This document shows positions 1 to 3,000 of a stretch of DNA of 14,018 nucleotides, one piece after another. The stretch lies in IMG/VR virus record IMGVR_UViG_2703718801_000013; one strand, written 5' to 3'. The stretch comes from a virus. Lineage: Duplodnaviria; Heunggongvirae; Uroviricota; Caudoviricetes. Made by a program: the position numbers. Numbering within the stretch: the first letter of the stretch is position 1; the number at the start of each line of letters is the position of its first letter.

Positions 1-3000
1 CTCATTTAGCGGCAACTTTCTTAATCACACCTTTCGACGAGAAAATCCCATGTCAGAAATTACATCCCTGGTCACTGCAGAGGCAGTGAAGGACGTCCTG
101 CGCTCTGAAGAAGTCCGGAGCGCACTGAAACAGAAACTTCGCCATAACCTGGAAGCGCGTCTTGATGCAGAAGTGGATGCCATTCTGGATGAACTGCTTG
201 GTGTACAGGCAGAGCCACCGACTGAAGCGGGAGATACCACCGCAGAGAGCGGTGAAGTTCAGCCTGAATCACCGGTCGCCGATGCGACTGAACCTCAACC
301 CGAATCGGTCATGATGCTGTAACGGGGAGTCAGGGCCATCAGTAAACAGCTGCTGGCCTTTTTCATGTTGTGAGCTTCCGGATTGCGGGAGACGGGGTAT
401 GTACCAGATGGAAAAAATCACAACAGGTGTGTCATACACCACGTCAGCGGTGGGAACGGGCTACTGGTTCCTGCAGTTGCTGGACAGGGTTTCCCCGTCT
501 CAGTGGGCGGCAATAGGCGTGCTGGGGAGTCTGCTGTTTGGTCTGCTGACGTACCTGACGAACCTGTATTTCAAGATTAAAGAAGACCGGCGTAAGGCGG
601 CGCGGGGAGAGTAAGCTGATGAGCAGGAAATTCCGCTATGGTTTATCAGCGGTAGTTCTGGCGCTGATTGCCGCAGGTGCTTCTGCGCCTGAAATCCTCG
701 ACCAGTTTCTGGATGAAAAGGAAGGTAACCACACCACGGCATACCGTGATGGTGTGGGTATCTGGACCATCTGCCGTGGAGCCACCCGGGTGGATGGTAA
801 GCCTGTGATTCCTGGCATGAAGCTGTCGAAGGAAAAATGCGACCGGGTTAACGCTATCGAACGGGATAAGGCGCTGGCATGGGTGGCGAAGAACATCAGA
901 GTGCCACTGACTGAACCCCAGAAAGCGGGTATTGCGTCATTCTGTCCTTACAACATTGGCCCCGGTAAGTGTTTCCCGTCGACGTTTTATAAACGAATTA
1001 ATGCAGGTGATCGAAAAGGTGCCTGCGAAGCGATTCGCTGGTGGATTAAGGACGGTGGCAGAGACTGCCGTATCCGCTCAAATAATTGCTACGGTCAGGT
1101 ATCAAGACGTGACCAGGAGAGTGCGCTGTCATGCTGGGGTATCGACAGGTAAGCAGAATATTTTGCTGAAAAATGACGTTGGCCAACGCGGGCAGATAAC
1201 ACGAAATCCTGCGAACTGGCAAAATGTAAGTGAATAAAGTCAACAAGATTGTTTCATGAAGAGGCACCGTAATGGTGCCTTTGTCATTTCTGCGCTTCGC
1301 ACAAGCGTAAATAAACCAAAGAACCTTTCAGGATGAGCCCTGGTGGATAACCGGCAGTGGTCTGGTTAACCCTCTTTGGGCTGGTTATTCCTGTGCGCAG
1401 GGTTCATCACTAAAAGGAAATAACCGATGAATATGATGACCGTGCCGTTTCACGGCGATTCTCTTTATGTGGTTAACCATAACGGCGAACCATACGTTCC
1501 CATGAAACCTGTCGTTGCGGGGATGGGGCTGGCCTGGCAATCACAGTTGGCTAAGTTAAGACAGCGTTTTGCGTCAACTATAACGGAAATCGTTATGGTT
1601 GCTGAGGATGGGAAACGACGCAATATGGTGTCCCTGCCGCTTCGAAAACTTGCAGGCTGGTTACAAACCATCAATCCCAACAAAGTAAAACCCGAAATCC
1701 GCGGCAAGGTAATCCAGTATCAGGAAGAGTGTGACGATGTTCTCTATGAATACTGGACGAAGGGTTTTGTCGTTAATCCCCGTCGAATGAGTGTGATGGA
1801 AGAACTCAATCAGGCTTGCGCTGACATGAAACGGGATAAAAACATTGCCAGTGTGTTTGCTACCGGGCTGAATGAGTGGAAACAGGTTAAATCCGCGCAT
1901 GTATCAAAAATCCGCACATTGATAAACGAAGCGAATCTGCTGATTGATTTTGTCCTGGCTGATACAGGCAAAGGGAAAATAACAAAGGCGGATTGATGGA
2001 GTGGTGGCTAATGATATCGGATAAACTCATAACGCTGGCGAAGATCCTCTGTGTAATCGTCGGCATTTCATTTTTAGTCATGCTGGTTGCCATTTTCTTT
2101 TCCACCGCCTGGCGAGTCCTGACGTTATCGGGACTGGTGGGGTGAAAGAGAGATGAATCGTGTTCTGTGTGTGGTGATTATTGTCCTGCTGGTAGCCTGT
2201 GGTGCGCTTAGTCTGGGGCTGAATCAAGCCGATGCGAGAGCTGAAAATGAAACTCTTCGCGCTGACGTTGCCGCTGGTTACCGCAGCCTGCGGATCAACG
2301 CCACCTGTCCAGGTCCCGTGCGTGAAGCCACCGGCACCGCCCGCGTGGATAATGCAACCGGCCCCCGACTGGCAGACACCGCTGAACGGGATTATTTCAC
2401 CCTCAGAGAGAGGCTGATCACTATGCAAAAACAACTGGAAGGAACCCAGAAGTATATTAATGAGCAGTGCAGATAGAGTTGCCCATATCGATGGGCAACT
2501 CATGCAATTATTGTGAGCAATACACCCGCGCTTCCAGCGGAGTATAAATGCCTAAAGTAATAAAACCGAGCAATCCATTTACGAATGTTTGCTGGGTTTC
2601 TGTTTTAACAACATTTTCTGTGCCGCCACAAATTTTGGCTGCATCGACAGTTTTCTTCTGCCCAATTCCAGAAACGAAGAAATGATGGGTGATGGTTTCC
2701 TTTGGTGCTACTGCTGTCTGTTTGTTTTGAACAGTAAACGTCTGTTGAGCACATCCTGTAATAAGCAGGGCCAGCGCAGTAGCGAGTAGCATTTTTTTCA
2801 TGGTGTTATTCCCGATGCTTTTTGAAGTTCGCAGAATCGTATGTGTAGAAAATTAAACAAACCCTAAACAATGAGTTGAAATTTCATATTGTTAATATTT
2901 ATTAATGTATGTCAGGTGCGATGAATCGTCATTGTATTCCCGGATTAACTATGTCCACAGCCCTGACGGGGAACTTCTCTGCGGGAGTGTGCGGGGATAA

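Follow-up and report, generated by a model that had tools for sequence, protein, structure and literature searches.

The first 5.7 kb of a 14,018-nt stretch of viral DNA (IMG/VR record IMGVR_UViG_2703718801_000013, Caudoviricetes; hereafter the window) is the late region of a prophage of the lambdoid, Shiga-toxin-phage type, and it carries, wedged between an antirepressor-like gene (ant) and the spanin gene Rz, a plus-strand open reading frame (ORF) of only 49 codons at positions 1996-2145. Two questions are raised by this locus: whether so short a frame is a gene and, if so, what its product could do in the middle of a lysis cassette. A preliminary description of the sequence had argued for a real gene, closely hemmed in by ant and Rz, whose product would be a small membrane protein with a single helix, and our answer to the first question agrees with it, the conservation of the frame and a non-synonymous to synonymous ratio (omega) of ~0.39 leaving us confident that the small ORF is a genuine gene and is translated into a membrane peptide. 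As to the second, the best overall explanation that we can offer, with a confidence falling somewhat short of an even chance, is that of a genuine late-operon gene whose product would reside in the inner membrane as a one-helix peptide and tune lysis; on position alone, a lysis modulator is the most plausible functional guess.

Coding status and start codon of the small ORF

Chance would keep a 49-codon frame open with a probability of (61/64)^49, i.e. ~0.1 per frame; since about one frame in ten would be expected to do so, length alone is weak evidence, and it is conservation that lifts the small ORF above chance. Our sample comprised 92 matching loci, 80 of them close relatives retrieved by a scan of viral contigs, which together provided 18 distinct nucleotide variants of the core of the frame. 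Every one of these variants is intact (18/18), with 43-44 codons, the same start and stop positions and indels of whole codons only. Nei-Gojobori pairwise ratios of non-synonymous to synonymous substitution rates (dN/dS) range from 0.1 to 0.45 for deep pairs with dS of 0.5-1.4, and a minimum spanning tree, a way of counting that avoids counting shared history again, carries 72 synonymous changes and 78 non-synonymous ones; with a synonymous share of 0.27 expected under neutrality, this gives the omega of ~0.39 (P = 1.7e-8), both halves of the ORF being alike. Four of the five other frames (+1, +2, -0 and -2) hold 11-74 stops across the variants and show ratios of non-synonymous to synonymous proportions (pN/pS) of ~1. 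Furthermore, all phage records with a tblastn match carry the small ORF full length and in one piece (276/276). The frame is thus intact down to ~60-70% amino-acid identity with an excess of synonymous changes, the pattern by which the preliminary description had proposed to check its coding nature.

Read from its longest ATG, the small ORF encodes the 49-residue product MEWWLMISDKLITLAKILCVIVGISFLVMLVAIFFSTAWRVLTLSGLVG, with the stop TGA at 2143-2145, whereas the list of mechanically called ORFs begins it at TTG 1993, a codon further upstream, and gives 50 residues. Its junctions were correctly described from the beginning: the ant stop (1994-1996) and the ATG (1996-1998) share the A at 1996 in a TGATG overlap (1994-1998) that can be read directly in the sequence, and the frame ends 7 nt before the Rz ATG at 2153, the spacer AAGAGAG (2146-2152) forming the purine-rich ribosome-binding region of Rz. 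Two in-frame starts come into consideration. The ATG at 1996 lies 7 nt after a Shine-Dalgarno-like AAAGG (1984-1988) that is annotated as a ribosome-binding site in phage P27, and an internal ATG at 2011 lies 9 nt after a similar motif, GGAG (1998-2001), and opens the 44-residue ORF (2011-2145, MISDKLITLAK...GLVG) that is the core conserved in the family. In the alignment, homologues without ant start at the position equivalent to ATG 2011, DNA homology to ant-less loci begins at 2014, and a Shine-Dalgarno-like motif is retained at a distance of 5-9 nt from the conserved ATG in four upstream contexts that are unrelated (GGGAGGA 7 nt upstream; GGGGGT, AAGGGG and AAGAGG each 5 nt upstream), all of which points to ATG 2011 as probably the ancestral and main start. 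The ATG at 1996 may be used as well. The five-codon extension that it adds (MEWWL, MGWL or MERWL) is present only in copies with ant upstream, and the ant-linked variants that we compared differ in it by non-synonymous or disruptive changes only, including a 3-nt deletion and, in one copy, a TAG; the MEWWL extension looks unconstrained. Translational coupling through the TGATG, as originally suggested, stands therefore in part: either start lies within 14 nt of the ant stop, so that close coupling with ant holds, but the overlap itself is probably not at the ancestral start.

Published ribosome profiling also bears on the coding status. Hücker et al. 2017 included XECs191 (MMGWLMISDKLITLVKSLCVLVGISFLVMLVAIFFSTAWRVLTLSGLVG) among 465 intergenic ORFs of E. 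coli O157:H7 Sakai judged to be translated; on the plus strand and in lysogeny broth (LB) it reached 30.0 reads per kilobase per million (RPKM) in the transcriptome, 12.6 RPKM in the translatome, a ribosomal coverage value of 0.43 and a coverage of 0.55, the thresholds being 1 RPKM, a coverage of 0.5 and a coverage value of 0.25, and it remained below these thresholds in brain-heart infusion (BHI) and under stress (PMC5597208). The length, strand and sequence of XECs191 match those of ECs_1966, the coordinates being offset by 140 nt between record versions, and ECs_1966 sits between the antirepressor gene ECs_1965 and the endopeptidase gene ECs_5727 in prophage Sp10. The copy of strain EDL933, EDL933_1392, was in turn taken by Neuhaus et al. 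2016 as an annotated short control protein (PMC4765031). The support expected from ribosome profiling is accordingly there in part: a paralogue 91% identical to the window's protein is listed as translated in LB, but the signal is marginal.

Family and predicted topology of the peptide

The gene is already known from RefSeq, PHROGs and the ribosome-profiling catalogue, all of whose entries leave its function unassigned. The preliminary description had called it unlisted, which is right for the 60-aa ORF track only, since RefSeq annotates the identical protein, WP_000455406.1, as a hypothetical protein at the same position in E. coli O111:H- 11128. Several phage records also annotate the small ORF, that of phage P27 together with its ribosome-binding site, and the original record of phage 933W left it unannotated. 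The Sakai (ECs_1966) and EDL933 copies are 91% identical to the window protein. Residues 1-49 match positions 1-49 of the 49-position profile of PHROG 4906, of unknown function, with E = 1.4e-33, the sole other PHROG match being to phrog_12129, also of unknown function (E = 0.027). PHROG 4906, WP_000455406.1, ECs_1966 (XECs191) and EDL933_1392 are names for one and the same family; the named copies lie, like the window's, between ant and Rz and have a single predicted helix. Beyond it, a Pfam scan of the peptide returned no family at E <= 1, NCBIfam only a match below threshold to MacB, an unrelated model (E = 0.15; 10 bits, the cutoff being 966), the PADLOC defence models 0 families at E <= 0.1, and Rfam no family at E <= 1 on either strand of positions 1-3400. 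A full-text literature search with the peptide sequence found no paper, and a functional study of the small ORF was not found in the literature on the lysis cassettes of Shiga-toxin (Stx) phages.

The distribution of the family is narrow. Among 5.8 billion proteins we found 62 relatives, those with a source name being all from E. coli or its phages, and a profile search of 1.84 billion cluster representatives gave 28 matches, all of them to the same narrow family or to frameshifted fragments, so that there are no distant relatives from which a function could be borrowed. Within E. coli, homologous DNA is present in 1,749 of 5,426 complete genomes (about a third), often in several copies each. 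By these searches the family is confined to lambdoid prophages of E. coli and Shigella. A scan of one genome per species (185,579 species) gave a single match, a 328-bp contig labelled Xanthomonas pisi (NZ_JPLE01000251.1, strain DSM 18956). The core nucleotides of this contig are identical to the window's, and its flanks are those of the window's ant end and Rz start apart from two substitutions, one of which is the TAG in the five-codon extension; it is most likely an assembly contamination.

The family alignment shows a core of 43-44 residues, M(I)SDKLITLAKILCVIVGISFSLMLVAIFLS..W..L..SG..G, that always ends in G followed by the stop, and the invariant residues gather in the N-terminal half (K10, L11, I12, K16, C19, V20, V22 and F26). 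One 80-residue library protein (P0067) consists of a C-terminal part of Ant fused to the small ORF from core residue 13 on, which implies a deletion across the ant/small-ORF junction in some genome.

A single hydrophobic helix with charged flanks had been recognized in the peptide from the outset, and this was borne out: codons 17-39 (2044-2112) encode one predicted transmembrane helix, ILCVIVGISFLVMLVAIFFSTAW, preceded by K10/K16 and followed by R40. Over its best 19 consecutive residues the Hessa dG sums to -4.8 kcal/mol and the Kyte-Doolittle hydropathy averages 3.1, and all sense-frame variants retain a strongly hydrophobic 19-mer with negative summed insertion energy. AlphaFold2, run on the family alignment, models residues 2-44 as one continuous helix with a mean pLDDT of 88, and for the EDL933 copy PredictProtein gave one transmembrane helix of 23 residues in the inner membrane (PMC4765031). 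By the positive-inside rule, given two conserved basic residues in the N-terminus, the topology is probably N-in/C-out. The conserved face of the helix (K16, C19, V20, V22, G23, S25 and F26) corresponds to the cytoplasmic half of the predicted helix, and the tail that follows it, of 10-14 residues (STAWRVLTLSGLVG, or SMAWMMLSSSGLLG in relatives) with 0-1 charged residues, is inferred to face the periplasm or to sit in the outer leaflet.

The insert between R and Rz and its surroundings

In the K-12 prophages DLP12 and Qin the stop of the endolysin gene R overlaps the start of Rz and the small ORF is absent, and because of this overlap there is no named K-12 homologue in either. Carrier prophages have instead an insert between R and Rz. 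This begins with an 86-nt non-coding leader (1153-1238 in the window), conserved in ant-linked and ant-less versions with 88-96% identity, continues with either ant (in Stx-type phages) or the gene of a 60-aa protein whose hydrophobic helix is C-terminal (PHROG 1115), and ends, on the side of Rz, with the small ORF, 5-12 nt before the next start codon. Of this exchangeable insert, then, the small ORF is the part that stays constant, at the end towards Rz. The leader, for which Rfam gave no match, could be a recombination flank, or a regulatory or RNA element; its first 24 nt hold a near-palindrome, GCAGAATATTTTGC, and recur in locus L091 (2844-2867) after a lipoprotein gene.

Rz starts no more than 60 nt downstream of the small ORF in 87 of the 90 loci with a readable downstream flank, a sample made up mostly of close relatives, the other 2 of the 92 lying at a contig edge. 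The exceptions are L005 and L091, in which a 60-aa lipoprotein gene follows, and L004, in which it is a second PHROG 1115-like fragment. Ten E. coli chromosomal contexts were also inspected, and in all of them the small ORF stands in the lysis cassette, downstream of the endolysin gene and on the same strand, regardless of the gene immediately upstream. The 60-aa PHROG 1115 protein, of unknown function, lies directly before the small ORF in L003 (2304-2486), and L004 has an extra partial PHROG 1115 copy (2596-2751) and then a 28-aa hydrophobic ORF (2763-2849) just before Rz. Taken together, the R-Rz junction seems to be a hotspot for genes of very small membrane proteins. The lipoprotein that follows the small ORF in L091 (2649-2831) and L005 (2675-2830) has the lipobox LLAGC, belongs to PHROG 7528 and shows a weak match to an NCBIfam spanin model (E = 0.07); in the prophages concerned the holins are of other kinds, the endolysin is a GH108 or M15 enzyme and an Rz could not be recognised, and the lipoprotein may be an unrecognised outer-membrane lysis component.

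In the DNA around the small ORF, identity to E. coli O111:H- 11128, to prophages of O157:H7 and to many Stx1/Stx2 phages is 99.7-100%, and the gene order is that of phage 933W. Upstream of the insert lie a class II holin gene of the phage 21 type (399-614, plus strand), identified by a Pfam match to the pinholin family PF04971, and a lysozyme gene (619-1152, plus strand) whose product has a hydrophobic, signal-anchor-like N-terminal segment, as in signal-anchor-release (SAR) endolysins; the endolysins of Stx phages have been described as of the SAR type (PMC8136144). The holin itself has two in-frame starts (MYQM..., 399-410), as in phage 21 S71/S68, and the three-residue extension between them has no basic residue, unlike that of the phage 21 holin, which is MKS. 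A gap of 274 nt of non-coding DNA separates the lysozyme gene from ant and contains, besides the leader, a terminator-like hairpin (1260-1282) with a 10-bp stem, 5 G-C pairs and a T-rich tail. Late transcription in such phages is antiterminated by Q, and the hairpin would therefore be read through. The ant-like gene (1427-1996, plus strand, stop TGA at 1994-1996) encodes 189 residues with P22_AR_N and ORF11CD3 domains. On the other side of the small ORF follow Rz, encoding a 107-residue inner-membrane spanin (i-spanin; 2153-2476, plus strand), an intact Rz1 gene for the outer-membrane spanin (o-spanin) embedded in it (2232-2417, plus strand), bor on the minus strand (2508-2801) and, from 3210, the genes of the small and large terminase subunits. 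The Rz of the window is identical to that of O111:H- 11128 but for a clean in-frame deletion of 141 bp, with its junction at 2226|2227 between the near-repeats GAATCA and GAATTA, that removes 47 residues just past the transmembrane helix (107 residues as against 154); all ten best-matching complete E. coli genomes have the undeleted form. The shortened i-spanin is probably too short to function, which suggests that this particular prophage is lysis-defective.

Candidate roles of the peptide

Position in the cassette invites comparison with the known classes of membrane lysis proteins. None of the curated models of holin families (classes I-III and pinholins) was matched by the peptide, which has a transmembrane helix but not the highly charged C-terminal tail of a holin. 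The preliminary description had also proposed an antiholin-like protein. The lambda S107 and phage 21 S71 antiholins are, like the peptide, small inner-membrane products of a lysis cassette, and the small ORF shares with them the possession of two in-frame candidate starts; they are, however, longer forms of the holin itself, with an extension that carries a basic residue. The small ORF is a separate gene, MEWWL contains no K or R and is missing in ant-less homologues, and BLASTP gave no alignment of the peptide with the window's holin. An antiholin of the lambda/21 type is accordingly a label that had to be dropped. Another accessory membrane protein that is not a holin, the releasin gp25 of phage Mu (DUF2730), is encoded near SAR endolysin and spanin genes, and has 99 residues, an N-out/C-in topology and an acidic cytoplasmic domain of 73 residues (PMC9239132). 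The peptide, of 44-49 residues, probably N-in, without a soluble domain and without DUF2730 (no Pfam match), is no releasin of this kind, and it occurs also with GH108 and M15 endolysins, beyond the SAR-type lysozyme of the window. It may nonetheless work, by analogy, like an antiholin or a releasin-type accessory factor. With the Rz-type i-spanins (PF03245), whose genes Rz/Rz1 the small ORF adjoins, the peptide has in common an N-terminal transmembrane helix and an N-in orientation; it matches no PF03245 and is not an i-spanin, because the 10-14 residues past its helix are far too few to cross the periplasm. BLASTP did not align the peptide with Rz either, and an LCV(I/V)(V/I) stretch shared with the Rz transmembrane helix was treated as compositional.

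Outside phage lysis, there is a likeness with AcrZ, MgrB and MgtS, E. coli proteins of less than 50 residues with one helix and no soluble domain, presumed to act by helix-helix contact; the peptide is alike in size and single helix, without sequence relationship, and differs in being phage-borne and encoded in a lysis cassette. A small membrane toxin had been considered as well, and type I toxins (Hok, Ldr, TisB, Ibs, ShoB) are likewise small, hydrophobic, single-helix peptides, some of them prophage-borne. They form transcription units of their own under the control of an antisense RNA, whereas the small ORF is internal to an operon and 7 nt from the next gene; neither an Rfam family on either strand (E <= 1, a search that covers known families) nor a promoter-like site nearby was found. 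From its operon-internal position and the lack of a known antisense RNA, the small ORF would not seem to encode a type I toxin, although an antisense RNA of an undescribed kind may exist.

These comparisons allow a mechanism to be sketched. In lambdoid prophages of E. coli, those of the Stx type among them, the small ORF would be expressed within the late (lysis) transcription unit and translated just after ant and just before Rz into a peptide of 44 residues, or of 49 should ATG 1996 also be used. The product would insert in the inner membrane as a single helix, with a short cytoplasmic N-terminal segment carrying conserved D/K residues, and act by helix-helix contact with a larger membrane protein, as other very small single-pass membrane proteins do, since so small a peptide leaves no room for catalysis. 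The likeliest partner would be a membrane-embedded lysis protein, because the small ORF is linked to and would be co-expressed with lysis genes: the pinholin, the SAR anchor of the endolysin or the transmembrane domain of Rz. By such contacts the peptide would tune when or how completely lysis occurs without being required for it. We regard this modulatory role in lysis timing or completeness as a reasonable if rather tentative proposal. It is tempting to go further and to see in the peptide, alone or with the 60-aa protein of ant-less prophages, an unrecognised class of lysis-timing factor that would act through transmembrane-helix contacts on pinholin triggering, SAR-endolysin release or spanin activation and would in this way, in Stx phages, influence the timing and the amount of Shiga toxin and phage release, an extension that we consider doubtful.

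Several observations weigh against a translated gene or against a role in lysis, and they have to be set beside the alternatives. That there is no gene here at all, the frame being open by chance, a shadow of an antisense frame or conserved as DNA or RNA only, would accord with the one-in-ten chance given above and with a family found so rarely (28 of 1.84 billion cluster representatives, and one contaminant-like contig among 185,579 species). The XECs191 signal, moreover, is narrowly above the thresholds, in LB only and in an uninduced culture, and its reads may be shared among prophage paralogues. An antisense ORF of 72 residues (1887-2105, minus strand), whose wobble positions coincide with those of the small ORF, is open in 18/18 variants with a pN/pS of 0.48, against 0.49 for the sense frame; both its openness and its mirrored pN/pS are expected from that coincidence, a case which shows that dN/dS alone can mislead about strand. 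The antisense frame was rejected as a gene, its start and stop differing in every lineage and its product being hydrophilic and devoid of a hydrophobic segment, as in a shadow frame. A few copies of the small ORF are frameshifted or relaxed (e.g. L092, P0068, P0069, P0072 and P0079, the first being a relaxed-looking copy and the frameshifted minority being found in resident prophages), which fits the decay of some prophages, not a non-gene. What makes the absence of a gene very improbable is that the sense frame keeps its start, stop and length at identities of 60-100%, all indels being multiples of three, that its Shine-Dalgarno motif persists in unrelated upstream contexts and its hydrophobic helix survives many non-synonymous changes, and that the antisense frame has no conserved boundaries and Rfam no match. 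The frame could also be translated to little purpose of its own, ending 7 nt before the Rz ATG in order to deliver ribosomes to Rz. The insert does break the coupling that the overlap of R stop and Rz start provides in DLP12 and Qin, and the next start codon always follows 5-12 nt after the small ORF, whose final codons fall within a G-rich stretch by the Rz ribosome-binding region. Such a relay would leave the amino acids unconstrained, yet omega is ~0.39 in both halves and the transmembrane character is kept in all variants; conservation is strongest among residues of the N-terminal half, remote from Rz; and the gene that follows is a different one in L005 and L091, the L004 copy not being directly before Rz either. 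We thus judge it improbable.

A more substantial alternative concerns not the gene but its role, for the small ORF could be a moron-type accessory gene that acts outside lysis, for instance by excluding superinfecting phages, by modulating a transporter or sensor in the host inner membrane or by benefiting the lysogen in some other way, and that merely rides the recombination-prone R-Rz junction. The cargo of this junction is interchangeable between conserved ends (ant, the 60-aa membrane protein and the 28-aa membrane ORF), the neighbours ant and bor are non-lysis passengers as well, and purifying selection operates in many resident, often defective, prophages. In addition, uninduced cultures give a certain signal for both transcript and ribosomes, and 120 bp upstream of the paralogue a weak promoter was predicted (PMC5597208); the hairpin after R (1260-1282) could make the insert a separate expression unit. 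Against this, a consensus scan of the plus strand between R and the small ORF disclosed no sigma-70-like promoter, no PADLOC defence model was matched, spontaneous induction of a minority of the cells accounts equally well for the uninduced signal, and the most constant partner of the small ORF is Rz, not any lysogeny gene. We consider a role outside lysis unlikely on balance, while giving it more credit than the alternatives discussed above. Tuning of lysis has its own difficulties: the small ORF is absent from lambda-like cassettes that lyse normally, so the gene cannot be essential for lysis, and it occurs with a class II holin and a lysozyme or with two other holins and a GH108 or M15 enzyme, a variety of company that speaks against a regulator dedicated to a single holin or a single endolysin.

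The significance of the small ORF for the biology of these phages depends on which of these roles it has. In either case it is a gene under purifying selection in the very cassette that releases Shiga toxin and phage from enterohaemorrhagic E. coli. Should the peptide have no part in lysis, it would be one more small prophage membrane protein of unknown role. If, on the other hand, it tunes lysis, as we tentatively prefer, it would add a component to the pinholin/SAR-endolysin/spanin pathway with a possible effect on the kinetics of toxin release.

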